Shown here: piece by piece, positions 2,444-27,878 of the stretch
Position numbering within the stretch: position 1 is the stretch's first letter
How the letters are laid out: the number at the start of each line of letters is the position of its first letter
Assembly: GCA_017475605.1 (NCBI GenBank)
Contig: JAFVFD010000005.1
Span: forward strand, 150,001 to 182,000
DNA: 32,000 nucleotides
Source: Alphaproteobacteria bacterium
GTDB lineage: Bacteria; Pseudomonadota; Alphaproteobacteria; Rs-D84
Reading direction: 5' to 3'
Made by a program: the position numbers and the translations under genes
The notes under the pieces: generated by a model
What the model was told of the DNA's origin: nothing
Database searches by the model: none
Seen by the model: only the letters and a program-made list of their open reading frames with translations

Positions 2444-3016
2444 ATGAAATGTTCAGAATGTATATTATCCCAGGCGGAAAAACCATACTACACCGCGATA
2501 GTATTTTTAATGACGGTGTGTGAATCTATATTTTTGTTTGTTCCACCCGAAGTATTCATGACCCCCGCAATAATTGCGAACCGCAAACGCGCGGTCCCTA
2601 TTACATTGGCGGCGACATTGGGGTCTATTGTCGGTGGCATAATATCATATATGATTGGTTTATGGGTATTTGATTCTGTGGGCTTGTGGCTTATCAACAA
2701 CTTTGCCTCTATGGACAAGTTTTATTTGGCCCAACAGATGTTTATAAAGCATGGTATATTTTTGATTGTCCTTACTGCGTTTACCCCGATACCATATAAA
2801 TTGATGTGTATAACTGCGGGCTTTATCGGCTTTCCATTTTGGTTAATGATTGGTGTATCTGCGATATTCAGAACGGGCCGCTTTGCAATTGTTGGCTTTC
2901 TGCTGTGGCGTTTTCAGGGAATGGCAAACAAAATTGTGAACAAATATTTTTGGCCACTTACAATTGGTGCGATAATTGTTGCCGGCCTGGGCATTGGTTT
3001 AATGTGCCTTATTTAA
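2444..3016 (+). CDS. DedA/YqaA (SNARE-associated) family inner-membrane protein
   Basis: 190 aa and multi-pass hydrophobic. It carries family-like motifs: E..F.FVPPE, G..VGG...Y.IG, and TPIPYK....AG. Confidence 0.65.
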   Translation: MKCSECILSQAEKPYYTAIVFLMTVCESIFLFVPPEVFMTPAIIANRKRAVPITLAATLGSIVGGIISYMIGLWVFDSVGLWLINNFASMDKFYLAQQMFIKHGIFLIVLTAFTPIPYKLMCITAGFIGFPFWLMIGVSAIFRTGRFAIVGFLLWRFQGMANKIVNKYFWPLTIGAIIVAGLGIGLMCLI

Positions 3017-3025
3017 AAACAAAAT

Positions 3026-3056
3026 AAAAGGACCGGTCATTCGACCGGTCCTTTTT
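3026..3056. terminator. Bidirectional intrinsic terminator between convergent genes
   Basis: Perfect 9 bp stem GGACCGGTC/GACCGGTCC (3030-3038 and 3043-3051) with a 4 nt loop. An A-run flanks it on the left and TTTTT on the right. Confidence 0.8.
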
Positions 3057-3082
3057 CAACACACCTCAAAGAAAGAACATTC

Positions 3083-4801
3083 TTATTCAACCCAAATTGA
3101 TGCTAATGTCGTTGAATTTTCACTTCCTGATGGAATCTTGTTTTGAGCATTCGCTAATGCGGTTGTAAGCCCACTAATCTTGCTCTGTGCGATTGCCGCA
3201 GATGTACTGATATCCGCATCCACAATTGTACCATTGGCAATCTTGGCACTTGTTACCGCACTATCTGCAATTTTTGCGGTCGTAACATTAGCATCTGTTA
3301 TCTTTGCTGTTGTTACCGCACCATCTGTAATCATACCTGTTGCAATTGTGCCGGTTGTAACGTTACCACTGGAATTTGTTATAACCGCTTTGTTCGCAGC
3401 ACTAGATCCCTGGGCTATTGTAACTTTTTTCGCAACCTCGGTATCAGTGTATGATTTTGCCTGAGTCAGTGCACTTGCCGCCGCAGTAGCAGCAGATGCA
3501 CCTGCAGCCCCCGCCGCTATTTCTTCCGCCGCATATACAGATGCCGCTGTTGCTTTCTTCGTATCTTCGCTTACTGTATCGTCATATGTCGCTGCAAGAT
3601 TCTGTAACGCCGTATCGGCTTTACCCAACGATGTCTGGACCGCACTTGCCAATTTAGCTTTCGCAATTGTGCCGTCCGCGATATCCGCATTCACAATAGT
3701 GCCGTCGGCAATCTTGGCGCTTGTTACCGCACTGCCGGCAATTTTTGCAGTCGTAACATTACCATCTGTTATCTTTGCCGTCGTAACCGCACCATCTGTA
3801 ATCATACCAGTCGCAATTGTGCCGGTTGTAACGTTACCACTGGAATTTGTTATAACCGCTTTGCTCGCAGCACTAGATCCCTGGGCCGTCGCAACTGCAC
3901 CAACATCCGATGCCCCCAAAGAGATATTACTTGACAATGCTTTGCCATTAACAGTTCTACTGGTTGGAACATAACTGCCAGATGCCTGTTTCCCATCTAA
4001 TGCCTTTTCCAATTTACCCAATGCCGCATTAACTGTATCGGTCGCCTCAATCGCTGCTGCTGTTTCTGCCTTGGCATAGCCTGTAACGGCTACATCTGCA
4101 CCAGACAATGTTATATCACCGCTTAATGCCTTGCTGTTAACTGTACGCGATGTGGGTACCGCACCAACATCCGATGCCCCCAAAGAGATATTACTGGATA
4201 AAGCTTTTCCATTAACAGTTCTACTGGTTGGAACATAACTGCCAGATGCTTGTTTCCCATCTAATGCCTTTTCCAATTTACCCAACGCTGCATTAACAGT
4301 ATCGGTCGCCGCAATCGCACTGGTTGCATTTGGCTTGGTATATCCAGTTGCCGCAATATCTGCACCTGACAATGTTATATTACCAGACAATGCCTTGCTG
4401 TTAACTGTACGCGATGTCGGGACATAACTGCCTGCGACTTGAAACTCACTGGCATCATGACTTACGATATCTCCATATTCCGCGATTGTATCCGCTGCGC
4501 CCTTACCGGCGGTTGCATTTGAACGAATTGTTGCCAAATCGGAAATCGTTGCCTGCTTGCCCGCCAAAGCACTGTTCACAACCTTGTTTTGAACCGCGTT
4601 AGTACTGCTACTGCTTAATGCGCTATCAACTGTTGGACCGCTAATCTGAACCTTGCCGGCATTGGTACCATTTGTCGGAACAGTAACACTAACACCATTC
4701 GCCCCCACGATATTCGTTTGGGTAACGACCTTTGCGTGTACTGTCGGCACTGCCAACATCGCTATAAATGAAACTGCAAAAATCCTATTTAGTCTTGTCA
4801 T
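3083..4801 (-). CDS. Secreted tail-fibre-like repetitive protein, paralog 6 (572 aa)
   Basis: GGAAAG RBS. Signal peptide MTRLNRIFAVSFIAMLAVPTVHA|K. Motifs include STNAVQNKVVNSALAGKQ, repeated YVPTSRTVNGKALSSNISLGASDVGAV units, and two blocks of decapeptide repeats (ITDGAVTTAK, ITDGNVTTAK and so on). It ends IPSGSENSTTLASIWVE. Confidence 0.85.
   Translation of the reverse strand: MTRLNRIFAVSFIAMLAVPTVHAKVVTQTNIVGANGVSVTVPTNGTNAGKVQISGPTVDSALSSSSTNAVQNKVVNSALAGKQATISDLATIRSNATAGKGAADTIAEYGDIVSHDASEFQVAGSYVPTSRTVNSKALSGNITLSGADIAATGYTKPNATSAIAATDTVNAALGKLEKALDGKQASGSYVPTSRTVNGKALSSNISLGASDVGAVPTSRTVNSKALSGDITLSGADVAVTGYAKAETAAAIEATDTVNAALGKLEKALDGKQASGSYVPTSRTVNGKALSSNISLGASDVGAVATAQGSSAASKAVITNSSGNVTTGTIATGMITDGAVTTAKITDGNVTTAKIAGSAVTSAKIADGTIVNADIADGTIAKAKLASAVQTSLGKADTALQNLAATYDDTVSEDTKKATAASVYAAEEIAAGAAGASAATAAASALTQAKSYTDTEVAKKVTIAQGSSAANKAVITNSSGNVTTGTIATGMITDGAVTTAKITDANVTTAKIADSAVTSAKIANGTIVDADISTSAAIAQSKISGLTTALANAQNKIPSGSENSTTLASIWVE
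3209..3886. repeat. Pair of 207-nt near-identical direct repeats (3209-3415 and 3680-3886) inside paralog 6
   Basis: Base-by-base comparison shows only scattered mismatches. The offset is 471 nt (157 codons, in frame). Each copy encodes AVITNSSGNVTTGTIATGMITDGAVTTAKITD.NVTTAKIA.SAVTSAKIA.GTIV.ADI. Confidence 0.9.
3897..4424. repeat. Tandem duplication, 2 x 264 nt (88 codons), inside paralog 6
   Basis: GCACCAACATCCGATGCCCCCAAAGAGATATTAC... recurs at 3897 and 4161. The unit encodes PTSRTVNSKALSG.ITLSGAD...TDTVNAALGKLEKALDGKQASGSYVPTSRTVNGKALSSNISLGASDVGAV. Confidence 0.9.
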
Positions 4802-4874
4802 TTTCGTCTTTCCGTTCTTATTGTCGTGTTTTCACGATTTTGTTATTCCCTTTTGCAATTCTGTTTTTATTGAC

Positions 4875-6707
4875 TTAACGGCCAATATCTTCCCAATAAT
4901 ATGTTGTCGCATTGTCTGCCACCTTGGCGGTAAGGACATATACCCCTTCGGTGCTTGGTGTGGCGGGTATTGCCGGCAATGAATTCTGCTTGGTCGCCAA
5001 CGCATCGGTAATGGCCTTTTGTGTCATGGTGCCATCCGTCCCGGTCCCTGTTGTTGTCTGCAATTTCATAACACCCTTGGTTGATGCGCCTGCATTTGCG
5101 ACACTGATTGTGCCTTCGGAAACACTGATGTTTGTTCCAACCTGAACAACACCCTTGGCCGATGTTGTTGCATTTGTCCCAGCCACCGTAATTGCACCAT
5201 TGGATGCGCTTGCGCTAACACCATTACTGCCCGATGCCGTAACGCTATTTTTCGCATTTGCGGCCGCAGTGGCTGCATCATCGGCTTTCTTTTCCAACTT
5301 ACCCAACGCGGTGTTCAATGTATCGGCCGTGGTCAGGTCTGCATTTGTCGTGGCCTTTGTATACCCCGTAATTGCGCCCATTTTGTTCGTAGTTATAGCG
5401 GCCGATGAACTGACCTTAGCATTTGTGATTGCATTACTTGCAATGTCGCCCGCTGCGATTGTTCCACGAACAACAGACACGGTCCCATCCGTTGCGGTTA
5501 TTGTTTTAACGACCCCGCTGGCACTGGCATTGTTTGACGTAATGGTTACATTTCCCCCATCCGCAGAACTCAACTTAACCTGTTTAGCATCGGCCGCATC
5601 TTTTGCTGCCTTGGTCGCGGTATCCAATTTTGCCAGGTTGCTGGCCACATTGTTACCGATTTCAATATAATTTCCTGCTGTTTTAACTTCAGAATCTGCT
5701 GATTTTTGGAATGTTGCAGCATTTTGTCTAACCACAGTTCCTGCGGCAACATTAGCAATATCATACGCGATACCAACCGTTACCAAATTATTTTCGTTTG
5801 CCGGTGTATCGTCTTCGGTTGTCGCTATATTAGCTAACTTTGCATTGGTAATTGTCGCATCTTTGATATCGCCATTTTCAATTGTTCCATCTGTGATATC
5901 TGCGGATGCAACCGCGCTTTTTGTTGCCAACGACCCCAGGCCCGAAACCTTGCTGGATGCGATAGTGGACGAAACCTCTACGGCGCCACTGGTTGCGTTG
6001 GTTGTCAATATACCTCCCTTGGTCGTTTGCGTTGATGCAACTGCACCAACATCGGATGCCGCCAATGTTACATCACTGCTTAATGCTTTGCCGTTAACTT
6101 TACGCGATGTCGGAACTGCACCAACATCAGATGCAGTCAGCGAAATATCCGCGCTTAATGCCTTGTTGTTAACTTTACGTGATGTCGGAACATAATCGCC
6201 TGCTGCACCACTGACCGCCGCACTTGCCGCTTCACTGGCAATCTTTGCTGCGGTTTTCATTGATGGATACGTTGTCGTACTGGTTTTATCGTATGTCGTC
6301 CCAGATTCCGCCGTTACCATATTCCCAGTTGTCTGTTTCGCCGCCAATGCAGTGTCCAGCCCAGAAATTTTCGCGGTTGTCAATGTTGGGATATCAGATG
6401 CCGCCAGGGTCGTACTGCCCGTTACCAAACCTTTGGCATCGTATGTAATCTTGGTCCCGGTTCCAGCCGTTATCGCGGCATTTGCTACGACAGCTTTGTT
6501 CGCGGTGGTTTGGGCTTCTGCGGCCGCAGTTGCTGCATCTGTCCCGGCTTTTTTCGCATCGGCAATAGCCATTTCAACGGTTTTATCTTTGTCATACACG
6601 CCCGCCGTTTTAGATAACATTGTTTCCGAAACGATAACCGCGTTTGCGCCGGTTACTGCCGTAATCGCAAGTATTGAAACTGTTAAAACTTTATTAAATG
6701 TTTTCAT
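4875..6707 (-). CDS. Secreted tail-fibre-like repetitive protein, paralog 5 (610 aa)
   Basis: Signal peptide MKTFNKVLTVSILAITAVTGANA|V. Motifs include KITYDAKGLVTGSTTLAASDIPTLTTAKISGL, YVPTSRKVNNKALSADISLTASDVGAV x2, decapeptide repeats and DTLNTALGKLEK. The C-terminus is IPATPSTEGVYVLTAKVADNATTYYWEDIGR. Confidence 0.85.
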   Translation of the reverse strand: MKTFNKVLTVSILAITAVTGANAVIVSETMLSKTAGVYDKDKTVEMAIADAKKAGTDAATAAAEAQTTANKAVVANAAITAGTGTKITYDAKGLVTGSTTLAASDIPTLTTAKISGLDTALAAKQTTGNMVTAESGTTYDKTSTTTYPSMKTAAKIASEAASAAVSGAAGDYVPTSRKVNNKALSADISLTASDVGAVPTSRKVNGKALSSDVTLAASDVGAVASTQTTKGGILTTNATSGAVEVSSTIASSKVSGLGSLATKSAVASADITDGTIENGDIKDATITNAKLANIATTEDDTPANENNLVTVGIAYDIANVAAGTVVRQNAATFQKSADSEVKTAGNYIEIGNNVASNLAKLDTATKAAKDAADAKQVKLSSADGGNVTITSNNASASGVVKTITATDGTVSVVRGTIAAGDIASNAITNAKVSSSAAITTNKMGAITGYTKATTNADLTTADTLNTALGKLEKKADDAATAAANAKNSVTASGSNGVSASASNGAITVAGTNATTSAKGVVQVGTNISVSEGTISVANAGASTKGVMKLQTTTGTGTDGTMTQKAITDALATKQNSLPAIPATPSTEGVYVLTAKVADNATTYYWEDIGR

Positions 6708-6752
6708 TGTGTCCGCCCTTGTCTTTTATTGTTGTCTTTTTTGTGTCCGTTT

Positions 6753-8681
6753 TTACCGTCCGATTACTTCCCATGTATAGCCAGTATTATCATACGTCAG
6801 CACGCATTTATTGGTTGCATCTGAACAGTTAGTTCCTGGTTTTGGAATTGCAGTACCTGATACGGTAACTGTAACAGCCCCACCAGTTGTGGAAATATCA
6901 CTCAAAATATTACCCGTACCAGATTTAGTTACACTCTGAATTGCGCTGTCTGCTTTGGCACCCTGGGCCGATGTTGCGTATGCTGTCGATGCAGTATATG
7001 CCGCGCTGCCCAAACCTTTGACCGCGACCGCTTCGCCCTTGACTGAAATTGTACCATTTGCCATTGTGGACGTTCCGGTTGTGATATCTGCTTTCTGTAA
7101 TGCGCTGTCCGCCTTGCCACCCTGGGCCGCTGTTGCGTATGCAGAACTTTCCGTATATGCCGCTGATTTCAAACCTTTGACCGAAACATCGGTACCTTCA
7201 ACCGCGATTGTACCGTTTGCCGTACCGGTTGTGATATCCGCTTTCTGTAATGCGCTGTCGCCGGCACCCAATTTTGCAACAACCGCATCCGCCAAATCAG
7301 ATTCTGTTACCTTGGCCTTGGTCATAGTGATTGCTGTGCCATTTTTAGCGACATTCGTAACAACACCTGCGTCGGTATTCGCCGTTACAGACTGTAATGC
7401 GGTGTCCGCCTTGCCACCCTGGGCCGATGTTGCGTATGCTGTCGATGCAGTATATGCCGCACTGCCCAAACCTTTGACTGCGACCGCTTCGCCCTTGACT
7501 GAAATAGTACCATTTGCCATTGTGGACGTTCCGGTTGTGATATCTGATGCCTGTAATGCGGTGTCCGCCTTGCCACCCTGGGCCGATGTTGCGAAATCCG
7601 ATGCGTCATGCGTTACGACATCGCCGTATGTTGCGATTGTATCCGCTGCGCCCTTACCGGCCGCTGCGTTTGAACGAATTGTTGCCAAATCGGAAATCGC
7701 ACCTTGCTTGGCATTCCATGTGCTTTTTTCCGTATCAGACACAAACTGTGCGGTTGCAGATGTTGCAATCAAACCCGCCGACAATTTGTTCTGATCTGTA
7801 ATCTTGTCTTGTTTACCGGATTCCAACGTATCAATATCAGATGCGTTTGTTGCGATATTGGTTTTATTAGTGTTAATTTGTGTTACCAATGCCGATGTAA
7901 TACCGGAATTATACGCGGCGGAATCTTCTATTGTTTTTACACGACCCGCCAACGCTGTATCATCGTATGTTGCAGCAGATTGTGCCTCGTTAATCATCTC
8001 AACGACCGTTTTACCGTCCGTAACATTACCGATTTTATTGTTAATTGCTGTATCTGCGGCCTCGCGTGCAGATTTTTCTGTTGCGATTGCGGTTGCGTTT
8101 GTTGCCGCCGCAGATTTAGCCTCGTTTGCGGTCCCCTGGGCTGCATCGGCTGCATCTTTGGCATTTTTCGCCGCTGTATCCAATTTGCCAAGATTGCTTG
8201 CCACTTTGTTACCTATCTCAATATAATTTCCCGCCGTTGCAACATAGGAATCTGCTGATTGTTGAAAATCAGAACTTTGCTGTTGTAGTGCTATTCCTGC
8301 CGCTATATCTGCGATATCATACGCAACACCAACCGTTACCAAATTATTTCTATTTTCTGCAGAATTTGATTCATCTTCTGCGATTGTTGGTGTGCCGGTT
8401 AAATCACTGTATGCGCCGGTTGTTGCGACATTGGCCAGACCGCTTACATTTGCGGCCGGCAATTTATTAGTAGCTGTAATCGCGTCCTGTTTGGCGGACC
8501 AGGCGGTTTTTTGTTCCGCGGTTACGTGAATATCATTATTCGCCGCATGTGTATCAATTTTATTTTCGACGGGCGTAATCTTGCCATTGACATAGGTCGT
8601 GGATGCGATATCCGCATTTGCTGCACTAACCGCCATTATTGCCGCAATCAACACAGTCAAGATATTAGTTTTTGTTTTCAT
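6753..8681 (-). CDS. Secreted tail-fibre-like repetitive protein, paralog 4 (642 aa)
   Basis: The ATG at 8681 follows a GAGAG RBS; the track start at 8693 is a GTG. Signal peptide MKTKTNILTVLIAAIMAVSAANA|DIASTTYV. It contains VATTGAYSDLTGTPTI and four units of about 50 aa (ADITTGT...KGLGSAAYT.S.AYAT.AQGGKAD.ALQ). The C-terminus is IPKPGTNCSDATNKCVLTYDNTGYTWEVIGR. Confidence 0.85.
   Translation of the reverse strand: MKTKTNILTVLIAAIMAVSAANADIASTTYVNGKITPVENKIDTHAANNDIHVTAEQKTAWSAKQDAITATNKLPAANVSGLANVATTGAYSDLTGTPTIAEDESNSAENRNNLVTVGVAYDIADIAAGIALQQQSSDFQQSADSYVATAGNYIEIGNKVASNLGKLDTAAKNAKDAADAAQGTANEAKSAAATNATAIATEKSAREAADTAINNKIGNVTDGKTVVEMINEAQSAATYDDTALAGRVKTIEDSAAYNSGITSALVTQINTNKTNIATNASDIDTLESGKQDKITDQNKLSAGLIATSATAQFVSDTEKSTWNAKQGAISDLATIRSNAAAGKGAADTIATYGDVVTHDASDFATSAQGGKADTALQASDITTGTSTMANGTISVKGEAVAVKGLGSAAYTASTAYATSAQGGKADTALQSVTANTDAGVVTNVAKNGTAITMTKAKVTESDLADAVVAKLGAGDSALQKADITTGTANGTIAVEGTDVSVKGLKSAAYTESSAYATAAQGGKADSALQKADITTGTSTMANGTISVKGEAVAVKGLGSAAYTASTAYATSAQGAKADSAIQSVTKSGTGNILSDISTTGGAVTVTVSGTAIPKPGTNCSDATNKCVLTYDNTGYTWEVIGR
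6961..7593. repeat. Pair of 177-nt near-identical direct repeats (6961-7137 and 7417-7593) inside paralog 4
   Basis: CCCTGGGCCGATGTTGCGTATGCTGTCGATGCAGTATATGCCGC... recurs at an offset of 456 nt (152 codons, in frame) with few mismatches. Confidence 0.9.
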
Positions 8682-8830
8682 AACTTCTCTCACTTTTTAT
8701 CTTTTTATGGCAAGACACACCCACCTACCCCACCGGGGGTATCTTCTTGCTTAACTTACCTTTCCCTATTATTTCTGCGGGGTTCGGGGGACCGGTCCAC
8801 CGGCCCCACCCCACGATTTACGAATTACTA

Positions 8831-9646
8831 TTAACGCGTAATTTCTTCCCAGCTGTATGCTTTACCATTATAGTGCAATACACAGTCTTTGCAGGAGCCA
8901 GATGGCTGTGGAATTGCAGTACCAGATACTGTAACAGTAACAGCATGATCTGTTGTTGTAATACCGGTCAAGATATTACCTTCACCAGATTTTGTAACAC
9001 TTTGAACAGCGCTGTCTGCTTTAGTACCTTGTGCTGCAGTCGCGAATTCGTCTGCATCGTGTGTTACGATGTCGCCATAGCTAGCAGCATTCGTAACCAA
9101 TGTATCATATTGACCAACTTTTGCTTGTGTGATACCTGATGTCATTGGTGCAGAACTGTTGATTGTAGAAATTGCTGTTTCGTTCGCAGTAACTTTTGCT
9201 GACAATGCTGTATCATCGTATGTAGCTGCAGTTTTTGCTGCTTCAACTGCTGTATAAACTGCTTTTGCAGATGGATACTGAGTATCTGTTGACGATTCAC
9301 TCATACTTGTTACCAAGTTTGATTTAATCTGCATATCGCTGATTGCAGCCGGTTGAACAGCTGTATCCGCTTTAGCACCTTGTGCTGCTGTCGCATATGC
9401 TGCATCACTCTGTTCTGTTGTTGAATATGGAACCAACGCTTCTGCGATTTGGGTTGCGACAGATTTGTTACCTGCTTTGGTGTTCAATTCGTTGATAGCA
9501 CCAACCAAATTGTCTTTTGCGGTCGTGGTCAAATTTGTTAATGTACCTGTTTGTTTGTCTACATATGCCTGTGATGCGATATCTGCGTTTGCTGTGCCTA
9601 TTGTGGCCAACAAAACTGTAAATATACTGGCGGTTAGTTTTTTCAT
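8831..9646 (-). CDS. Secreted tail-fibre-like protein, paralog 3 (271 aa)
   Basis: GAAAGG RBS. Signal peptide MKKLTASIFTVLLATIGTANA|DIASQAYVDKQ. It contains NLVGAINELNTK and YGDIVTHDADEF. The C-terminus is SVTKSGEGNILTGITTTDHAVTVTVSGTAIPQPSGSCKDCVLHYNGKAYSWEEITR, which parallels the end of paralog 4. Confidence 0.85.
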   Translation of the reverse strand: MKKLTASIFTVLLATIGTANADIASQAYVDKQTGTLTNLTTTAKDNLVGAINELNTKAGNKSVATQIAEALVPYSTTEQSDAAYATAAQGAKADTAVQPAAISDMQIKSNLVTSMSESSTDTQYPSAKAVYTAVEAAKTAATYDDTALSAKVTANETAISTINSSAPMTSGITQAKVGQYDTLVTNAASYGDIVTHDADEFATAAQGTKADSAVQSVTKSGEGNILTGITTTDHAVTVTVSGTAIPQPSGSCKDCVLHYNGKAYSWEEITR

Positions 9647-9793
9647 AGTTTTTTCCTTTCTTTCTTTTTTTGGTTTGTTGTTTGTTGTTTTTTTGTCGTC
9701 CCGGCGGTCCCATTTGGTTCAACCGGGACGGGTTATTGTTTTCTTCGTTCTTTTATCTCTATCGTTTTCGTCTTGTCTTATATCAAATCTTTA

Positions 9794-10741
9794 TTACGGT
9801 TCAACACTCATACTGAACGGCAAGGTGATGCCGGCCCATTCCATTGCGCCTGTGTCTTTGTTTTTAACCAATACACAGTAATCAGATTCACTGGTGCAGG
9901 AACCACTCATTGCGGTTTGTGTTGCTTCATATGCTGCAACCTTGGTCGCATCAATGCCGGAATTAACAGCTGCCAACTGAGCCGTTGTCAATGTATCCTG
10001 TTTGCCGTCCAATGCAGCATCTAATTCATTGATCGCACCTGTAACAGTTTGCGCAGTTGTTGTTAATGTATCAGATCCAACCTTGGTTTCCAACGCGGTA
10101 ACATCGGTTGCATCCGCTTTGTCTGCCAAAGCTTCTTCAACGGTGGTATTACCAGTACCCAAATCACCCAATGCATCAGAAATTTGTTGTGAAACAGAAC
10201 CCGCACCGCCGGTTACACTGGCCAACGCATCGGCAACCGCTTTTTCTGTTGCCCATTTAGTGTCTGATGCACTTGCGGCGGCACCAATTGTTGTTGCGGC
10301 ATCGGAAACATTAACCTTACCGTCCAACGCAGAATCTAATTCATTGATTGCACCGGTAACTGTTTGTGCGGTTGTTGTTAATGTGTCGGTACCAACCTTG
10401 GTTTCCAATGCATCAACATCAGCCTGGGCTGCATCTGCGGCAGCCTTGGCTTCTGCGACAGAACCAGCCGTATCCGCATCACCCATCAATGTGTCAACAT
10501 CATCTTTTAATTCATTGACCGCACCAACAACAGTATCAGATGTAAAACCATCGTCCAACGCATCGTTTTCACCGGCAACCAAATCGGACAATTCGGTAAT
10601 TGCACCATTTTCACCAGTCAACTCGCTAACCTTATTATCAACATAGTCTTTTGATGCAATTGTGAATGCCGCGTTAGCATCCACGGTTCCCATCAAGATT
10701 GCCGCAGCAAAGCCTGAAAATACAATGTTTCTTACTTTCAT
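9794..10741 (-). CDS. Secreted tail-fibre-like protein, paralog 2 (315 aa)
   Basis: Signal peptide MKVRNIVFSGFAAAILMGTVDANA|AFTIASKDYVDNK. It has two copies of ETKVG.DTLTTTAQTVTGAINELD.ALDGK. The C-terminus is GSCTSESDYCVLVKNKDTGAMEWAGITLPFSMSVEP. Confidence 0.85.
   Translation of the reverse strand: MKVRNIVFSGFAAAILMGTVDANAAFTIASKDYVDNKVSELTGENGAITELSDLVAGENDALDDGFTSDTVVGAVNELKDDVDTLMGDADTAGSVAEAKAAADAAQADVDALETKVGTDTLTTTAQTVTGAINELDSALDGKVNVSDAATTIGAAASASDTKWATEKAVADALASVTGGAGSVSQQISDALGDLGTGNTTVEEALADKADATDVTALETKVGSDTLTTTAQTVTGAINELDAALDGKQDTLTTAQLAAVNSGIDATKVAAYEATQTAMSGSCTSESDYCVLVKNKDTGAMEWAGITLPFSMSVEP
10005..10408. repeat. Pair of 89-nt similar direct repeats (10005-10093 and 10320-10408) inside paralog 2
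   Basis: CCGTCCAA.GCAG.ATCTAATTCATTGAT.GCACC.GTAAC.GTTTG.GC.GTTGTTGTTAATGT... recurs at an offset of 315 nt (105 codons). Confidence 0.85.
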
Positions 10742-10798
10742 TTTTTTCTTTCCTTTCTTTTTTTCTTAGCCCGGAATCCCCGGAACCGTTTTGTTGTT

Positions 10799-13033
10799 TT
10801 ATTCTATTGTGTCACCCGTGGCGGCGGCAATTGCCGGACCATCTGAATCACCGTTTCCATCAACGATTGGTATATATGCCTGGACCCCATTAACAAATCC
10901 TAATACATATTGACCACTTGGTGGAACAGCCCCCTTGATAACCTTTTCTTCCAATGCGCCGGTTACAACCTTGTTCTGGATTGCATTAGCGCTTGATAAA
11001 CTTAATTCAGAATCAACAATAACCCCTGCTGGAATTGTCGGTTTGTTTTGGATGAAACTTAATTTTGCAGAATCTTCTTCTTCCCAGTCTGCCTGGACCA
11101 AATCAGTCGTATTCGCCTTTAATGCCAAACCTTCGTTCAAAGCCTGACTGGTGGCAAATTTACCGTCAGCCTCGGCAACGGAATAATAATTTTGTTCCAG
11201 TGTTGTTGCATCAACCTTGCCTGCAATTTGATTTGCGTATGCATCATAGGCAGAAACCTTTTCCCCAGTAATACCGGAATTAACCGCCGCCAATTGCCCT
11301 TCGTTCAAAGAGTTCTGTTTGTCCGCCAACGCGTTTGCGATATTTGTCGCGTTTGTTGTAACAACTTCCTGTAATTCGGTAATCTTGCCCGCGTTTGTAG
11401 AGATACCCGTTTCATTCGTACCAACGCGACCAGCCAATGTTTCCAAATCAGACGCATTTGCCTTGTCCGCCAACGCGGTATTCATCGCCGCCGTTGTCGC
11501 AAAACCAGATACATCTGGGATAGTTGGTGTATTTAACAAATCGGTGTATTCGCCGCTGAACGCAACGTCCGCCAAATCGTCCGAGTCAGGCTTGTCCGCC
11601 AATGCCGCCGTATTCGCAGCAATCGCCGCGGCATTATCCGCAACCGATTTGGTCAAACCAGAATTCGCATCACCAACCGCGGTTTCTAATGCGGTAATCT
11701 TTTCATTGGCTTCGGCTAAATTCGCATCGGTCGGTAAATCGTCAACCTTGTCAGACAATGTCGCGATTGTCGAGGCAACCGTATTCGTTGAATCAAAGCC
11801 GGTTCCCAATGCATCAGATGCCGTTTTACCAGCCGTCGCATTTGAACGGATTGTTTCAATATCGGAAATGGCATTGTTTATTGTTCCCAATTCCGTTTCA
11901 ACATAATTTTGGTTAGCCTTCAAGGCAATCTTGTCGTCCATAACCTGTAACGCGCCATACATTGATGCAACATCAGCCTTGTTCGTGGCGATTTGCCCAA
12001 CCTTGGTCGCATCAATGCCGGAATTCAATGCAGACTGCTGCGCCTCGGTCAATTGGTTCCATCCACCAGTCGCAGTACCCAATGTATAATCAGCAGTTGA
12101 TTTTGGCTGCTTGCCCGCAACAACTTCATCGGTCGCAACATTTTCCAATTTGGTATCAATGTCAGATTTCGTATAAACATCTGCGGTGTTGGCCTTAGCC
12201 TCCAATAATGCATCGGTCGCAGTCTTTGTATAAACACTGTCTGAATCAGCCTTTTGCGCAACGATATCAGATAACGCGTTAACTTCAGACTTGGTCGCGT
12301 ATGTCGATGCCAAACCGGATATAGCATTTGCTAAATCGGTTGCGGTCGCATATGTACCCGCTAATTCGTCCAGATTCATTAACTTTTTCCATGTGGCCGA
12401 CGGGGTATCAGCATAGCGCCATTCCAAATGCGCATCGCCGTCATATTGTAATTCAATCTTGTGTCCCATCGCCCAACCCTGAGACTGTAATGCAGCCGCC
12501 AGGTTATCCATATTGATAGAAACTGTGCTGTTTTCGATTTCAACAATACCTTCGTCGTCGGCAATTAATTTATCCTGTTTGGCATTGTCGATTGCATCAA
12601 CCTTGTCTTCAATTCTGTCGGCATTGCTGATAATGTTGGTAATGTTGTTGTTGATTTCAGCAATTTCCGCCGCGGTCGCACCCGGTGTTGTCGAACCACC
12701 AGACGATGAACCACCAGATGTACTTACCGATGTGGCAGGTCCAAGATATTTACCAATTGATAAACGTTGTGTGCTTTCGGTCGCGCCAGATGGTGTCGTA
12801 CGGGTCGCAGTCGATACAGAACGTGTTGTCGATGGCGATATACGTAACGAACCCGCGCGGGTCGCACGCGCCGCCGTCGAAGACGTGGTCGCAGATGTCG
12901 CCGCCGCGGTACCGTTATATGTACCCGTTCCACCCAGCGCACGAACAGAACCCGCACCAAACGCGTCGGTCGCAACAGCGCACAAAACGCACAAAACTGA
13001 TACTGTCGAAATTTTTAATGTATGCTTTTTCAT
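10799..13033 (-). CDS. Secreted tail-fibre-like protein, paralog 1 (744 aa), with a long Ser/Thr/Arg-rich N-terminal region
   Basis: GGAAAGAGAG RBS. Signal peptide MKKHTLKISTVSVLCVLCAVATDAFG|A. Residues about 27-120 are low complexity. Motifs include AFSGEYTDLLNTPTIP, ADWEEEDSAKLSFIQNKPTIP, SSANAIQNKVVTGALEEK and IETIRSNATAGK. The foldon-like segment VPPSGQYVLGFVNGVQAYIPI is followed by an acidic Gly-rich tail. Confidence 0.85.
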   Translation of the reverse strand: MKKHTLKISTVSVLCVLCAVATDAFGAGSVRALGGTGTYNGTAAATSATTSSTAARATRAGSLRISPSTTRSVSTATRTTPSGATESTQRLSIGKYLGPATSVSTSGGSSSGGSTTPGATAAEIAEINNNITNIISNADRIEDKVDAIDNAKQDKLIADDEGIVEIENSTVSINMDNLAAALQSQGWAMGHKIELQYDGDAHLEWRYADTPSATWKKLMNLDELAGTYATATDLANAISGLASTYATKSEVNALSDIVAQKADSDSVYTKTATDALLEAKANTADVYTKSDIDTKLENVATDEVVAGKQPKSTADYTLGTATGGWNQLTEAQQSALNSGIDATKVGQIATNKADVASMYGALQVMDDKIALKANQNYVETELGTINNAISDIETIRSNATAGKTASDALGTGFDSTNTVASTIATLSDKVDDLPTDANLAEANEKITALETAVGDANSGLTKSVADNAAAIAANTAALADKPDSDDLADVAFSGEYTDLLNTPTIPDVSGFATTAAMNTALADKANASDLETLAGRVGTNETGISTNAGKITELQEVVTTNATNIANALADKQNSLNEGQLAAVNSGITGEKVSAYDAYANQIAGKVDATTLEQNYYSVAEADGKFATSQALNEGLALKANTTDLVQADWEEEDSAKLSFIQNKPTIPAGVIVDSELSLSSANAIQNKVVTGALEEKVIKGAVPPSGQYVLGFVNGVQAYIPIVDGNGDSDGPAIAAATGDTIE

Positions 13034-13092
13034 TTCTCTCTTTCCACGTCTATTTTATCATATTTGCGAATCGGCTCCAAGAACTTTTTTGG

Positions 13093-13809
13093 TTAAAATT
13101 CATATCTGATACCAATTGATATAGAATTATCCAAAACTAAATCGATTTTGTTTTTGAAATAGTGTGTTGCATTAAACTCTCTTTCCTGGCTTGTCCCATA
13201 AAAACCAGCAATACGATAACGTAAATCAAGAACAATATTGTCATCCAATTTGTATGAATAACCCGCCATCAAACCCAACATTGGCGAAACATCTGTTTCC
13301 TTACGATTACCCGCGTCGGTAAACGCAATAGAATCCAGGGTTGTTGTTGGTAACGCAATACCAACACCCGCCCCCAAATACAAACCGTTATCAAAATCAT
13401 AATAACCATTTGCTACTAAATACGGCACAGACATTTTGAACGCATAGCCTTCGTCTTCATCTGTAAATTCACTGATATAACCGGCTTCAACTTCGGCACG
13501 CCAGAAATAATTTATACGTTTACCAAATGCCAAGTCCGCCGCAAACAATGGTTCAAACGAATACTTGTCGTGATTTTCAGACGCATTTAACGGAATATCC
13601 GAAGAATATTTGTTTTCCCAATTCAAAAAACTTAATTCCGCACGAACCGCACCGTACCAACCTGACTTTGCCTTGTCGGTGTAACTATATGTAACGTCAT
13701 AACCCCCCTTTGCGTTACGTGTTAACTGACTTGGGCGGGCAGCCTTGGTCGCGGAAAACGCAGGTGTTACAACCGCACACAGCGCAATAATCGAAACTAA
13801 TTTTTTCAT
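13093..13809 (-). CDS. Outer-membrane beta-barrel protein, Omp25/Omp31/OMP_b-brl-like
   Basis: GGGGGA RBS. Signal peptide ...AVVTPAFS|A. It shows alternating amphipathic strands, RAEVEAGY, and a terminal ...SIGIRYEF with C-terminal Phe. It lies 59 nt upstream of fibre paralog 1 on the same strand, with no terminator between them. Confidence 0.8.
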   Translation of the reverse strand: MKKLVSIIALCAVVTPAFSATKAARPSQLTRNAKGGYDVTYSYTDKAKSGWYGAVRAELSFLNWENKYSSDIPLNASENHDKYSFEPLFAADLAFGKRINYFWRAEVEAGYISEFTDEDEGYAFKMSVPYLVANGYYDFDNGLYLGAGVGIALPTTTLDSIAFTDAGNRKETDVSPMLGLMAGYSYKLDDNIVLDLRYRIAGFYGTSQEREFNATHYFKNKIDLVLDNSISIGIRYEF

Positions 13810-13882
13810 GGAATTTTCCCCCTAATTTTTTCATAAGTATATCACATTTTGACCCCGTTCCCAAATGGAAAAAAACACATAT

Positions 13883-13912
13883 TGACAACTTTTTATAATT
13901 TTTGCTAAATTG
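13883..13912 (+). promoter_or_regulatory. Candidate sigma70-type promoter for pal (TTGACA-18 nt-TAAATT)
   Basis: TTGACA at 13883-13888 and TAAATT at 13907-13912. An AAGGA RBS precedes the ATG at 13937. Confidence 0.4.
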
Positions 13913-13936
13913 AGTTCGTAAAGATAAGGATGAGAA

Positions 13937-14335
13937 ATGAAAAAAATTATGTTTGTTCCTGTTTTGCTGGCCTTGGCGGCATGCGCAACAAAAAGCAATA
14001 TCAATGACGACAAGGTTTTCTTTGCTTTCGATTCGGCTGAAATAACCGATGCCGCAAAGAAAGATTTACACGACCAATCACGCTATATGAAAAAACACAC
14101 CGATAAAAATGTCGTATTAGAAGGACACTGCGACGAACGCGGTTCAACCGAATACAATTTGGCACTGGGGGCATTGCGTGCGGGTAATGCGGCACACGTC
14201 ATGATAAAAGACGGTATCGAACCAGAAAGAATTAAAACCATTTCTTATGGCAAGGAAAATCCACAATATCCGGGTTCTGGCGAAAAGATTTGGGCGAAAA
14301 ACAGAAATGTTACAACCAAGACAAAAACGAAATAA
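13937..14335 (+). CDS. pal: Peptidoglycan-associated lipoprotein (OmpA_C-like domain)
   Basis: Lipobox LALAAC, followed by FDSAEI...VVLEGHCDERGSTEYNLALGALRA...ISYGKE, the typical Pal/OmpA C-terminal PG-binding domain. 132 aa. Confidence 0.9.
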   Translation: MKKIMFVPVLLALAACATKSNINDDKVFFAFDSAEITDAAKKDLHDQSRYMKKHTDKNVVLEGHCDERGSTEYNLALGALRAGNAAHVMIKDGIEPERIKTISYGKENPQYPGSGEKIWAKNRNVTTKTKTK

Positions 14336-17302: not shown

Positions 17303-17716
17303 TTATTCACACCAACCGGCGCGTTTGCCGCCACCATATGGCCGCCCCAGTTTTTCATTAATTAAAACCTGCCCTACATTGCGACCATCGGGCAGAATAA
17401 CATTTGCGTCAATTCGCCCCAGGTATTTATCGTCCTTGATATTCTGTAAATCAATAACTGTACCGGCCGGTATCAATTCCATAAGACGCGCCCGCGCCAT
17501 TTTGGCACGCATGATTTCATATTCACACTTTCCATGTATTTCGGGGGTATCTATATTTATCAATCGCACCCGAACGGAAATATCAACGTCCGGCGCAATC
17601 GAAACATATGCCGCAAAAGTATCGCCATCATAGACATAGTCTGCAACCGCCGGCACCGCGTACGCATAACGCGACATCACACATAAAACAACAAATGCGA
17701 TATATTTTATTTTCAT
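17303..17716 (-). CDS. Secreted thermonuclease (SNase-like) family protein
   Basis: Signal peptide MKIKYIAFVVLCVMSRYAYA|V. The motifs YDGDTF...VRVRLINIDTPE...DKYLGRIDANV...G...L....LGRPY match the staphylococcal-nuclease fold. The start is 3 nt after the tolB stop. Confidence 0.7.
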   Translation of the reverse strand: MKIKYIAFVVLCVMSRYAYAVPAVADYVYDGDTFAAYVSIAPDVDISVRVRLINIDTPEIHGKCEYEIMRAKMARARLMELIPAGTVIDLQNIKDDKYLGRIDANVILPDGRNVGQVLINEKLGRPYGGGKRAGWCE

Positions 17717-23480: not shown

Positions 23481-24239
23481 TTATTTGTTTATAACCCGTT
23501 CCAATTTGGAACGCAATTTTTTTATATCATCGTATTTAGTAAACTTGCCACGTTCAGCGATTGAAATATCGCCCGATTCTTCGGACACAACCAAAACGGT
23601 TGCCCCAGATTTTTCAGACAAACCCAATGCCGCACGATGACGCGTGCCATATTTCCAATTAAGATTATTCTGCGACAATGGCAATATTGCACCCGCATAC
23701 GCAATTCTGTCGTGTGAAATTATTACCGCACCATCATGTAATGGTGTTTTATTAAAGAATATTGTTAGCAATAATTCAGATGTGATTTTAGCATCAATCG
23801 CTATACCTTTTTTATCAATCGCACTTTCGTCCAGCGAACTTGGGAACACAATTAATGCCCCGGTATGTTTCTGCGACATATATTCTGTTGCCGCCACAAT
23901 CGCGTCCAGCGATGCCGTATTCTTAGCCGAAACCCCGTCGCGCCCAAACACGCGTCGCCATTCTTCTATATTTCCCATCAATGCTAAAAACTTGCGTAAT
24001 TCTGGCTGAAAAATAACAATCAAACTTATGGAAAGGAACAATGCCATCCAATGGAAAAATCCGCCCAACAAATCCAGGTGTGCCCACGATAAAACAAAAC
24101 TGGCAATCCACAATGCCGCCAATCCCAACAATCCGCGAACCAATTTTTCCGAAGATGTATTTTTTATAAATGTTTTATAGAAAAACCATATCGCAATAAC
24201 AATAATTAAAACCTGGGCCAAATTAATCCATTTAAACAT
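23481..24239 (-). CDS. cdaA: Membrane-anchored diadenylate cyclase (CdaA/DisA_N family)
   Basis: Three N-terminal TM helices plus a DAC domain with HDGAVII and GTRHRAA motifs (TPLHDGAVIISHD..., KYGTRHRAALGLSE...SEESGDISIAERG). Confidence 0.85.
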   Translation of the reverse strand: MFKWINLAQVLIIVIAIWFFYKTFIKNTSSEKLVRGLLGLAALWIASFVLSWAHLDLLGGFFHWMALFLSISLIVIFQPELRKFLALMGNIEEWRRVFGRDGVSAKNTASLDAIVAATEYMSQKHTGALIVFPSSLDESAIDKKGIAIDAKITSELLLTIFFNKTPLHDGAVIISHDRIAYAGAILPLSQNNLNWKYGTRHRAALGLSEKSGATVLVVSEESGDISIAERGKFTKYDDIKKLRSKLERVINK

Positions 24240-27366: not shown

Positions 27367-27831
27367 CTAGTCCCCAAAGACAATCTGAACGGAATTATTA
27401 GTCCCGGAATTTTTACAATTCCCTGTTGCCCCACTTTCAGTATGATTTGATGAAATATACCCAACCGAATCGGTCCATGCCTTGGTCGCCAGATATTCAC
27501 AATCAGACATTGGCAAACCATCAATACCGACAATAAATTGACGGGCATTTGACGGGTTAACCGATACCGTATATGCACCGCCATACGGGTTTTTATTAGA
27601 TACACCAATTGCCCCAAAAATCATCGAATTGTCGATATTGGAAAAATCGTCATACCCGCCCAGCAATTGACGTACCTGGGTTACGATTGTAACGACATCT
27701 TCTGTAACCTGAGATTTTTTTTGTGAATTCAATGCCAAACGCAGCAACGAAAATGCCCCGACCGTTATGATACCCATAATGGCCAATACGCCCAACATTT
27801 CAATCATTGAACGTCCTGATTCTTGTTTCAT
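27367..27831 (-). CDS. Type IV pilin/pseudopilin-like protein (class III signal peptide)
   Basis: The ATG at 27831 follows GGGGGA. The short leader is MKQESG|RSMIEMLGVLAIMGIITVGAF, with Glu at +5 and a hydrophobic helix of about 20 aa. The C-terminal part has a Cys pair (SDCEY...GNCKN). 154 aa. Confidence 0.6.
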   Translation of the reverse strand: MKQESGRSMIEMLGVLAIMGIITVGAFSLLRLALNSQKKSQVTEDVVTIVTQVRQLLGGYDDFSNIDNSMIFGAIGVSNKNPYGGAYTVSVNPSNARQFIVGIDGLPMSDCEYLATKAWTDSVGYISSNHTESGATGNCKNSGTNNSVQIVFGD

Positions 27832-27878
27832 TTTATCCCCCATTTGATTTTTCTTTATATTATTCTATCATAAAGATT

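Follow-up and report, generated by a model that had tools for sequence, protein, structure and literature searches.

A chromosomal operon of phage-fibre-like proteins with predicted Sec signal peptides in Candidatus Enterousia

A seven-gene array between housekeeping genes

We examined a window of 32,000 nt (contig JAFVFD010000005.1, positions 150,001 to 182,000, assembly GCA_017475605.1) from a gut metagenome-assembled genome (MAG) of Candidatus Enterousia (Alphaproteobacteria, order Rs-D84). Seven co-oriented minus-strand genes, encoding a small barrel protein and six Ala/Thr-rich proteins (termed F1 to F6) that carry Sec-type signal peptides as judged from sequence features, lie between pal/ftsEX and dedA/rbfA/lepA. 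The features of the array are as follows, with coordinates relative to the window.

13836-13864 (-), promoter-like site upstream of the barrel gene, a candidate operon promoter
13093-13809 (-), small outer-membrane β-barrel protein (OMP; 238 aa) with a signal peptide, ending ...GIRYEF
10799-13033 (-), F1, class-1 fibre (744 aa), always the first fibre gene of the array
12653-13033 (-), F1 signal peptide plus the class-1 N-terminal module, a candidate retention or anchoring end
9794-10741 (-), F2, class-2 fibre (315 aa)
8831-9646 (-), F3, class-3 fibre (271 aa)
9002-9394 (-), repeat-bounded module inside F3, with 42-nt direct repeats at 9002-9043 and 9353-9394
6753-8693 (-), F4, class-3-like fibre (646 aa from a GTG; the likelier start is the ATG at 8681, MKTKTN...)
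4875-6707 (-), F5 fibre (610 aa)
3083-4801 (-), F6, last fibre (572 aa)
3026-3055 (-), intrinsic-terminator-like hairpin closing the operon

The intergenic gaps are 59, 57, 147, 137, 45 and 73 nt, and each contains a purine-rich stretch before the start codon. The hairpin at 3055-3026 has a 13-bp stem with seven GC pairs followed by a T-run, and is the only strong minus-strand terminator-like site in 2900-14100. The promoter-like site rests on a consensus match alone (9 of 12 positions, with a TG extension). All seven proteins have a basic n-region, a hydrophobic core (mean Kyte-Doolittle 2.3-3.1 over 10 residues) and the small-x-small sites listed in the initial annotation. The fibres are 16-20% Ala and 12-16% Thr. 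The flanking genes are lepA, rbfA, dedA, pal, ftsE, ftsX, DUF218, plsC, tolB, dnaN, uvrC and dnaJ, and no phage structural, integrase or lysis gene, and no tRNA or Rfam RNA, was found in the window.

These data confirm the gene array that the initial annotation reported from the sequence alone. However, its statement that the mature proteins are built almost entirely from phage fibre motifs was too broad. The description holds for F6, which matches PHROG head-fibre and tail-fibre families to 1.7e-24 and has tblastn matches in 434 phage records, and for F5 (PHROG tail protein, 7e-14). In contrast, the relationship is weak for F2 and F3, and at whole-protein level it fails for F1 and F4, which have no PHROG hit; F1 matches only 2 phage records.

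The locus is fixed in 76 related species genomes

F3, F1 and the barrel protein are 100% identical to NCBI proteins of an 'Alphaproteobacteria bacterium' MAG (IJ866_02700 and IJ866_02710 for F3 and F1, respectively). To examine the distribution of the array, we scanned 185,579 species genomes with a profile of the barrel protein, which returned 76 loci. Nearly all are titled Ca. Enterousia, Alphaproteobacteria/Rickettsiales or simply 'proteobacterium'/'bacterium' gut MAGs, and one is filed under a Bacteroides fragilis bin. Wherever the contig extended far enough, the gene order is ftsX-ftsE-pal, then the barrel and fibre genes, then dedA-rbfA-lepA, although pal was not detected in four divergent loci. 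The space for fibres ranges from 61 bp to more than 9 kb, and complete loci contain 0-6 fibre-like genes (0-7 ORFs called), with a median of 4. The initial annotation had proposed a search for this synteny outside prophages, and in every genome examined the locus is chromosomal and is not a prophage. A search for contigs encoding F6 or F3 returned no record, and genomic context for the fibres came instead from six other proteins.

Of 232 fibre ORFs in the 76 species, 223 have a signal-peptide-like N-terminus, and the remainder include miscalled GTG starts. Apparently split or signal-peptide-less first genes at five loci (L020, L030, L033, L059 and L074) initially raised the possibility of phase variation, but these proved to be GTG starts that ATG-only ORF calling had missed, and the idea was rejected. 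In contrast, none of 13 phage homologues that share modules with the fibres has a signal peptide.

Fibre ends are conserved and shafts are mosaic

The fibres fall into positional classes in which signal peptides and short N- and C-terminal motifs are conserved, whereas the middles are mosaic. The class-1 N-terminal module of F1 comprises three short conserved motifs (SVRxLGGxGTY, RxGSxRVxP and RLSIGKYLGG) in low-complexity Ser/Thr/Ala/Gly sequence, and all 303 homologues of F1 carry it. A profile of this module found 315 divergent clusters (242 at E<=1e-10) among 1.84 billion representative proteins, and in all 150 listed hits the match starts within the first ~20 residues, usually at residue 1. 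The module was not found in viral contigs.

F2 carries a conserved signal peptide (KNIxFSGFxAAIL...ANA) followed by IASKxYVD, and ends in a C-x(6)-C-V-L...W motif. For F3, which has 443 homologues, the invariant columns of the family all lie in residues 19-29, and the C-terminal consensus IPxPxGxC...KCVL...YxWEVIxR is retained while the middle has no consensus. The C-terminal ...YVLT...YYWEDIGR motif of F5 is shared with fibres at position 4 in other species. F6 has a second type of C-terminal motif (...IPSGS...ASIWVE), which occurs in 49 of 268 fibres, usually in the last gene. Beyond short motifs, the six N-termini are not homologous to one another.

Mature fibres contain either no Cys (117) or exactly two (102), and in 99 of these 102 the pair lies <=12 residues apart in the C-terminal motif. 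This is the pattern expected for a disulfide formed in an oxidizing compartment, and suggests folding outside the cytoplasm.

The middles share modules of 30-260 residues with gut-phage tail fibres. Module sharing with phage and IMG/VR contigs is at 30-83% identity, and the F6 matches, in the phage records above and in 54 viral contigs, cover modules only. Shared elements include the NGKALS...DVGA unit, STNAVQNKVV, ADWxExD...IQNKPT, collagen-like tracts and coiled coils. We attempted to build a profile of the NGKALS...DVGA unit to find a solved structure, but too few units were recovered.

DNA comparisons indicate rapid turnover. Repeats shared among paralogues are 77-92% identical; F4, for example, shares its C-terminal 145 nt with F3 at 77% identity and other segments with F5 and F6 at 79-88%. 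Furthermore, in a 99.9%-identical assembly the 351-nt unit bounded by the direct repeats in F3 is duplicated in tandem, adding a 117-aa module and giving an F3 of 388 aa instead of 271 aa.

Predicted structures of the fibres and the barrel

The AlphaFold2 monomer model of F3 is mediocre overall (pLDDT 66.6), but predicts long confident helices that start right after the signal peptide (residues 26-57, pLDDT >90), with C-terminal strands and a hairpin at 255-268. A Foldseek search with this model found no significant structural neighbour; the best hit (E=0.9) was an Agrobacterium phage 7-7-1 tail fibre. Sequence searches of F1, F4, F5 and F6 against all PDB chains gave no hit at E<=0.1, and none of the six fibres has a Pfam hit at E<=1.

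Evidence bearing on oligomeric state comes from relatives of the window proteins. Collagen-like Gly-X-Y runs of 4 to more than 80 triplets occur in 37 fibres, almost all of them F1-class orthologues, which argues for trimers. Alanine-zipper matches (trimeric Lpp/OprI type) occur in 12 of 71 F3 relatives. We also considered whether the C-terminal cap (IPxP...YVL...G...W..I) resembles the T4 fibritin foldon. A profile of 45 caps found no foldon-bearing PDB chain at E<=10, and a local comparison with the foldon sequence gave 3.8 bits, out of register, with 18 of 2000 shuffles scoring as high. Because neither analysis supported the likeness, we describe the element only as a conserved β-hairpin cap.

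The barrel protein is predicted by AlphaFold2 (pLDDT 85, pTM 0.74) to form eight long strands, and Foldseek against PDB matched NspA (1e-7), the OmpA transmembrane domain, Ail and OmpX (1e-7 to 1e-6). This narrow fold, the size and the C-terminal aromatic residue agree with small outer-membrane barrels such as these and the alphaproteobacterial Omp25/31 and Rickettsia Adr proteins, all in Pfam OMP_b-brl, and homologues are annotated as 'porin family' or 'opacity protein-like'. Scores lie below the curated cut-offs (OMP_b-brl, PF13505, 23.8 versus 28.7 bits; Rick_Adr 29 versus 210 bits), but many homologues carry a precomputed PF13505 hit, so the protein is a distant superfamily member. It is about 50-63% identical in most of the 76 species genomes and 31-49% in the most divergent.

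The initial annotation regarded the barrel as a possible anchor for the fibres. This proposal is weakened by the presence of the barrel in a genome with no fibre gene (locus L078) and in one with a single small fibre (locus L080). The barrel therefore looks like a resident envelope protein behind which the array grew; an anchor role is unproven, and a translocon role is unlikely for so narrow a barrel. The protein has a conserved ~25-residue N-terminal extension (GGYxVTYxYTDKAKxGWY) with no known counterpart. The extension is diverged in L078 and L080, but also in L075 and L076, which have about four fibre genes each, so it shows no clean correlation with the presence of fibres.

Comparison with known fibre systems

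The closest analogues are the mosaic adhesive trimer (MAT) fibres of Bdellovibrio bacteriovorus (Caulton et al., 2024; PMC10769870), a precedent that the initial annotation had raised. Both are chromosomal, multi-paralogue families of Sec-signal-bearing, phage-fibre-like mosaic proteins with one conserved end and a diversified remainder, both have no known route across the outer membrane, and both occur in bacteria that depend on other cells. The MAT paper lists relatives in other predators and symbionts, including the alphaproteobacterium Micavibrio. MATs have an invariant β-rich domain of ~130 aa after the signal peptide and variable C-terminal tips, 13 of 21 with an S74 chaperone-protease. 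In the Enterousia proteins the signal peptide is followed by a predicted helix (F3) or a low-complexity motif module (F1), no S74 domain was detected, the C-terminal ~30 residues are the conserved part, and the genes form one operon at one locus rather than being dispersed. No sequence match to the solved MAT tip structures was found for F1, F4, F5 or F6. The parallel is therefore an analogy rather than membership of the MAT superfamily.

Phage tail fibres, head fibres and fibritin-type fibres share sequence modules and a mosaic, recombining architecture with the Enterousia proteins. However, the phage homologues carry virion-attachment N-termini and no signal peptide, and the Enterousia genes are never next to phage structural genes. 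Trimeric autotransporter adhesins (YadA, Hia and BadA), which are proven trimeric surface adhesins of Gram-negative bacteria, resemble the Enterousia proteins, whose export is inferred from their signal peptides, in being Sec-exported, coiled-coil-rich fibrous proteins that vary in length through repeat modules. No C-terminal YadA-type membrane anchor and no head, neck or stalk Pfam domain was found in the six fibres, and the nearby barrel is a separate, predicted 8-stranded protein, not a 3x4-strand translocator.

Interpretation of the array

With moderate confidence, we interpret the locus as a lineage-specific operon, present at one fixed chromosomal site, that encodes a small resident outer-membrane barrel followed by a fast-changing set of elongated proteins (a fast-changing operon of two to seven proteins bearing export signals), most likely surface fibres for attaching to a partner cell. 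In this view, each fibre has a cleavable signal peptide, a short class-specific N-terminal motif, a mosaic shaft of alanine-rich coiled coil, collagen-like tracts and phage tail-fibre modules, and a conserved ~30-residue C-terminal β-hairpin cap that in about half of the fibres holds the only two cysteines of the protein. The chains would cross the inner membrane unfolded through Sec, oligomerize outside the cytoplasm, probably as trimers and perhaps nucleated at the cap, and end up on the cell surface, with the class-1 N-terminal module as the best candidate for the retained end. There they would serve as adhesive or recognition fibres towards partner or host cells, while their shafts would be continually reshuffled by recombination among paralogues and with phage fibre genes.

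Our analysis establishes the gene structure, the conservation of the locus, the signal-peptide features, the phage-module mosaicism and the fold of the barrel, the last from a predicted structure. In contrast, expression, signal-peptide cleavage and export, trimerization of the window proteins, passage across the outer membrane, surface location, adhesin function and target are inferred. The interpretation given in the initial annotation, of exported trimeric fibres derived from phage receptor-binding proteins and displayed on or released from the cell, is thus supported only in part: the phage origin of many modules, the signal peptides as a specific and conserved feature of the chromosomal copies, and the non-prophage setting are borne out, and a trimeric state is plausible. 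Two observations sit less easily with the model. No outer-membrane translocation route is visible in the window: the barrel is too narrow, and the only other candidates are an AsmA-family gene and a lone pilin-like ORF. Also, conserved C-terminal ends are the opposite of the variable tips usual for phage receptor-binding proteins.

Other roles are less likely. The proteins might form a variable protective coat, S-layer-like or antigenically varying, that shields against phages, host immunity or predators. Hypervariable shafts with conserved ends and the co-encoding of several paralogues in a fixed order would fit this unlikely alternative, and a family-4 (GT4) glycosyltransferase at the end of the array in locus L016 (a same-sized ORF sits there in L025) hints at glycosylation. 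However, no S-layer-type domain or lattice-forming fold was detected, and coiled-coil and collagen architecture is more typical of projecting fibres, although a coat role and adhesion are not mutually exclusive. Similarly doubtful is release of the proteins as soluble or vesicle-borne factors, such as decoys that mop up phages or targeting modules for secreted cargo. F2-F6 have no recognizable anchoring domain, their mature N-terminus runs straight into the shaft (IASxxYVD, then helix), and no lipobox and no sorting or anchor signal was found in Pfam or NCBIfam searches. In contrast, the universally conserved and always N-terminal class-1 module suggests a retention function, and no toxin or enzyme cargo genes lie in any of the arrays.

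A periplasmic role, as Lpp/OprI-like trimeric coiled-coil tethers or spacers functioning with the Tol-Pal system, is less likely still. The array adjoins pal (where detected), tolB and ftsEX in every genome, and the alanine-zipper matches in relatives are to the major outer-membrane lipoprotein family. Yet fibrous sequence of 270-1468 aa would be far longer than a periplasm is wide, and copy number from 0 to 7 and rapid turnover are unlike core envelope parts. The proteins also have phage receptor-binding modules and no lipobox, and one genome (L078) lacks the fibres altogether. Finally, gene transfer agents are common in Alphaproteobacteria, and module-level homology to phage tail and head fibres could reflect leftover or domesticated phage or gene transfer agent fibre genes whose products work in the cytoplasm on a particle encoded elsewhere. 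This very unlikely reading is already largely refuted by the signal peptides on 96% of copies, the fixed non-prophage locus in 76 species, the lack of a virion-attachment N-terminal domain, the Cys pair that suggests oxidative folding and the absence of the class-1 module from viral contigs.

A more far-reaching possibility, which we offer only tentatively, is that the array encodes a phage-derived attachment organelle that evolved independently of the Bdellovibrio MATs, in a genome-reduced, partner-dependent gut alphaproteobacterium. The class-1 protein would be held in the envelope by its unique three-motif N-terminal module. The other classes, which keep a fixed gene order and conserved N- and C-terminal junction motifs, would either form separate fibres or join head-to-tail into a segmented fibre, as in the T4 long tail fibre. 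Assembly would take place outside the cytoplasm by an export route yet to be identified, and the fibre would determine which partner cell Enterousia attaches to.

The array is a real, lineage-wide system that has not been described previously. It would be a second, independent case, after the Bdellovibrio MATs, of bacteria re-using phage receptor-binding architecture as their own Sec-exported surface fibres, which sharpens the question of how such fibres cross and attach to the outer membrane; the class-1 N-terminal module and the Cys-containing C-terminal cap provide concrete handles on this problem. Ca. Enterousia is uncultured, is widespread in human, ruminant, horse, bird and mouse guts, has a genome of about 0.75-1 Mb with no respiration and few transporters, and is proposed to be an obligate symbiont or parasite that lives off other cells, which it contacts by means not yet known. 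The literature proposes partner dependence for Rs-D84 but does not mention these genes (PMC12306168). An operon that takes about 1% of such a genome, is present in nearly every species and evolves by module shuffling with phages is the obvious candidate for that contact apparatus.

Organization of the fibre gene array

To establish the gene content of this region, we first examined the open reading frames and the potential transcription signals on the minus strand. The initial annotation had described seven consecutive minus-strand genes, comprising a small barrel gene followed by six fibre-like genes, and this observation holds, with every ORF located exactly where it had been placed. The main features are as follows.

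13836-13864, minus strand: promoter-like site upstream of the barrel gene (consensus scan)
13093-13809, minus strand: barrel protein, 238 aa
10799-13033, minus strand: F1, 744 aa
9794-10741, minus strand: F2, 315 aa
8831-9646, minus strand: F3, 271 aa
9002-9394, minus strand: module within F3 bounded by 42-nt repeats
6753-8693, minus strand: F4, 646 aa (probable ATG start at 8681)
4875-6707, minus strand: F5, 610 aa
3083-4801, minus strand: F6, 572 aa
3026-3055, minus strand: terminator-like hairpin after F6 (consensus scan)

The gaps between successive genes are 59, 57, 147, 137, 45 and 73 nt, and each contains a purine-rich stretch before the start codon. The hairpin at 3055-3026 is the one strong minus-strand terminator found by the consensus scan. 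Given this terminator and the promoter-like site at 13864-13836, a single transcription unit is plausible, although this is inferred from sequence alone. All seven proteins have N-termini with Lys/Arg, a hydrophobic core and a small-x-small site (AFS/A, AFG/A, ANA/A, ANA/D, ANA/D, ANA/V and VHA/K, where the slash marks the putative cleavage position). The fibres are composed of 16-20% Ala and 12-16% Thr. The G+C content is 0.43-0.50 across positions 3000-13000 (highest at 5-8 and 12-13 kb), compared with 0.38-0.42 in the immediately adjacent windows, and the AT skew of the plus strand is strongly negative (-0.07 to -0.32). This composition is explained by the Ala/Thr/Gly-rich coding on the minus strand and need not indicate foreign origin.

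The rest of the window consists of housekeeping genes, namely lepA, rbfA, dedA, pal, ftsE, ftsX, DUF218, plsC, a gene for a secreted SNase-like protein, tolB, fbaA, efp, dnaN, a DAC-domain cyclase gene, asmA, a pseudouridine synthase gene, uvrC, pgsA and dnaJ. Searches for tRNAs and Rfam RNAs in the window found none. Three of the neighbouring minus-strand genes have additional features of note.

17303-17716, minus strand: signal-peptide-bearing staphylococcal-nuclease-like protein (SNase, 2.5e-4) next to tolB, which may be a secreted nuclease for nucleotide scavenging
23481-24239, minus strand: membrane protein with a DAC (diadenylate cyclase, c-di-AMP) domain (3.6e-39), which is uncommon in Alphaproteobacteria
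27367-27843, minus strand: 158-aa ORF with a type IV pilin/pseudopilin-like N-terminus (...SGRSMIEMLGVLAIMGIITVGAF) and no Pfam hit at E<=0.001, the only hint of a pilus or T2SS-type component in the window

Distribution of the locus in Candidatus Enterousia

F3, F1 and the barrel protein are identical to NCBI proteins of an 'Alphaproteobacteria bacterium' MAG (IJ866_02700 and IJ866_02710 for F3 and F1; contig of 695,807 bp). To determine how widely the locus occurs, we scanned a profile of the barrel protein against one genome per species (185,579 species), and this search returned 76 loci. Nearly all are titled Candidatus Enterousia, Alphaproteobacteria/Rickettsiales or simply 'proteobacterium'/'bacterium' MAGs from human, chicken, horse, buffalo, roe deer and mouse guts. 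One locus (L082; CAVGNU010000018.1) is filed under a 'Bacteroides fragilis' bin, but this contig carries a 58% identical barrel protein, the same synteny and five fibres, and is probably mis-binned. Published work places Enterousia in order Rs-D84, reports genomes of about 0.75-1.0 Mb without TCA cycle, respiration, flagella or standard transporters, and proposes an obligate symbiont or parasite lifestyle (PMC12306168). The fibre genes are not mentioned in that study, and no description of them was found in the literature searched.

Although the locus is conserved, its content is not. Wherever enough of the contig could be examined, the gene order is ftsX-ftsE-pal, then the barrel and fibre genes, and then dedA-rbfA-lepA, with the exception that pal was not detected in four divergent loci. 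The space between the barrel gene and dedA is 61 bp in the locus designated L078, which has no fibre gene, 723 bp in L080, which has one 205-aa fibre, and 2.4 to more than 9 kb elsewhere. Complete loci hold 0-6 fibre-like genes (median 4; up to seven ORFs were called), and the window, with six fibres and 3,158 fibre residues, is at the upper end. No phage structural genes flank any of the arrays. In five relatives (L001, L004, L006, L008 and L149) two to five small unannotated ORFs (116-258 aa) followed by a phage-integrase-like gene (Arm-DNA-bind_3/Phage_int) lie just downstream of lepA (for example L004:15048-18913), in a region outside the left edge of the window.

L078 and L080 are the two most divergent genomes and also have the most divergent barrel proteins (36% and 31% identity, respectively). 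In L078 (10001-11287) the barrel gene is directly followed by dedA, whereas in L080 (680-2628) it is followed by the single 205-aa fibre, which has the class-1 N-terminus described below and an ...IWIE end. These arrangements may represent the ancestral or minimal state. The simplest reading is that the barrel is a resident envelope gene next to pal, and that the fibre array was added and expanded behind it.

In L016 (7104-9010) the array ends with a Cys-rich secreted protein (~262 aa, no Pfam hit) and a family-4 glycosyltransferase (Glycos_transf_1, 1e-16). L025 has ORFs of the same size (266 and 368 aa) at the same position, identified by size and position only. This hints at fibre glycosylation in some species.

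Positional classes with conserved ends and variable middles

A comparison of 262 fibre-like ORFs from the retrieved loci, together with the six window fibres, reveals positional classes. Class 1 (F1) is always first. After the signal peptide it carries three short conserved motifs (ASSVRSLGGxGTY, RGGSVRVxP and TTPRLSIGKYLGG) embedded in low-complexity Ser/Thr/Ala/Gly, followed by coiled coil. Class 2 (F2) and class 3 (F3, and the ends of F4) have class-specific signal peptides, and the predicted cleavage site is followed immediately by IASxxYVD. The last gene (F6) ends in ...IPxGS...IWVE, whereas nearly all other fibres end in a ~30-residue motif, (I/V)PxP...(C)...(C)VL...G...W..(I/V). In the F3 family every invariant column lies in residues 19-29 and the C-terminal consensus is kept, while the middle has no consensus.

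We used a profile of the class-1 module to search 1.84 billion representative proteins, and this search found 315 clusters (242 at E<=1e-10). In all 150 listed hits the module starts within the first ~20 residues, usually at residue 1, of proteins that are 119-1095 aa long. In contrast, the module was not found in 2.9 million viral contigs. Short full-length relatives (180-229 aa) consist of just signal peptide, module, a short coiled coil and a C-terminal cap.

Relationship to phage fibres

F6 and F5 hit PHROG head-fibre and tail-fibre families (1.7e-24 and 7e-14, respectively), F2 and F3 hit weakly, and F1 and F4 do not hit. F6 matches 434 phage records, never covering more than about half of the protein, as well as 54 IMG/VR contigs over 30-260-residue modules at 30-83% identity. 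F3 matches 9 viral contigs, and 15 of 71 F3 relatives hit a tail-fibre PHROG. The 13 phage ORFs that carry these modules lack signal-peptide-like N-termini, whereas 223 of 232 array proteins have one, and the apparent exceptions that were checked had GTG starts. These results indicate that the shafts are phage-derived mosaics, and that the signal peptide and the class-1 module are cellular additions.

Within the window, paralogues share DNA segments of 56-217 nt at 77-92% identity (F3/F4 C-termini, F4/F5, F4/F6 and F1/F2). Furthermore, an assembly that is 99.9% identical over 20 kb (L149) differs only by a tandem duplication of a 351-nt (117-aa) unit in F3, bounded by the 42-nt repeats (9002-9394 in the window compared with L149:10001-11167), which gives a protein of 388 instead of 271 aa. 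This difference reflects either real copy-number and length variation or a repeat that was collapsed in one assembly.

Sequence evidence bearing on export and oligomeric state

Mature fibres contain either no cysteine (117) or exactly two (102). In 99 of those 102, both cysteines lie <=12 residues apart in the C-terminal cap, as exemplified by C-x6-C in F2, C-x2-C in F3 and C-x7-C in F4. This is the pattern of a structural disulfide and fits folding in an oxidising compartment, although such folding is an inference.

Collagen-like Gly-X-Y runs of 4 to more than 80 triplets occur in 37 of 232 fibres, nearly all of which are class-1 orthologues, though not in the F1 of the window. Such tracts form triple helices in bacterial and phage proteins. 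Very long tracts (up to more than 80 triplets) occur in class-1 genes of L011, L016, L025, L036, L039, L047 and L079, for example in gene 3 of L016 and gene 1 of L079, and tract length seems highly variable between species. Twelve of 71 F3 relatives match Pfam Alanine_zipper, the trimeric Lpp/OprI-type coiled coil.

The AlphaFold2 monomer model of F3 (pLDDT 66.6) shows long helices directly after the signal peptide (residues 26-57, pLDDT >90), C-terminal strands and a terminal hairpin at 255-268 (pLDDT about 80). This model has no significant PDB neighbour. We also considered the possibility that the C-terminal cap is a foldon, but neither a profile search of PDB nor a local test supported this identity.

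The predicted eight-stranded barrel

AlphaFold2 yields a confident eight-stranded barrel for the first gene product (pLDDT 85, pTM 0.74), whose closest folds are NspA, the OmpA transmembrane domain, Ail and OmpX (E about 1e-7). Pfam OMP_b-brl and NCBIfam Rick_Adr score below their cut-offs. Such a barrel cannot pass a fibre. It could at most bind one, and its presence without fibres in L078 argues against a dedicated role. The protein also has a conserved, poorly modelled N-terminal extension (GGYxVTYxYTDKAKxGWY) that does not track fibre presence. In L073 (10001-10924) the barrel protein carries a tandem Cys-rich insertion (KTGCNSGCCGSCVTIKNCADKV, two copies) between this extension and the first strand.

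A model for fibre function and comparison with known systems

The initial annotation proposed that these proteins are phage-derived trimeric fibres exported through Sec and displayed on or released from the cell, with the barrel as a possible anchor, and this interpretation is partly supported. In the mechanism that we consider most likely, with only slightly better than even confidence, the proteins would be exported through Sec with cleavage by signal peptidase I, and would then oligomerise outside the cytoplasm, probably as trimers and possibly starting at the C-terminal cap. They would be displayed on the surface, with the class-1 N-terminal module as the best candidate for the retained end, and would be used as adhesive or recognition fibres by a partner-dependent bacterium. 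Diversification would occur by recombination among paralogues and with phage genes. Every functional step in this scheme is inferred, and the steps are not equally secure. Export is very likely and a fibrous oligomer is probable, whereas surface display is about as likely as not, adhesion to a partner remains tentative, and a role for the barrel as the anchor is unlikely. The data do not explain how the proteins would cross the outer membrane. Rival readings are that the proteins form a protective variable coat, are released factors, act as periplasmic tethers, or are cytoplasmic phage or GTA parts.

The closest concept is the Bdellovibrio MAT superfamily (PMC10769870), with which the array shares the signal peptide, phage-like mosaic fibres, many paralogues, one conserved end and an unknown outer-membrane route. 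Membership in this superfamily fails on three counts: there is no beta-rich ~130-aa N-terminal domain, there is no S74 domain, and there is no sequence match of F1, F4, F5 or F6 to the solved MAT tips. The conserved and variable ends are also arranged differently, and the genes form one putative operon. The array is not a trimeric autotransporter, because there is no YadA anchor, and it is not a prophage or GTA part. The general concept of phage-like mosaic fibres with signal peptides is already known from Bdellovibrio. With function inferred throughout, the array described here is a lineage-wide, previously undescribed candidate contact apparatus in a common but uncultured putative gut symbiont.
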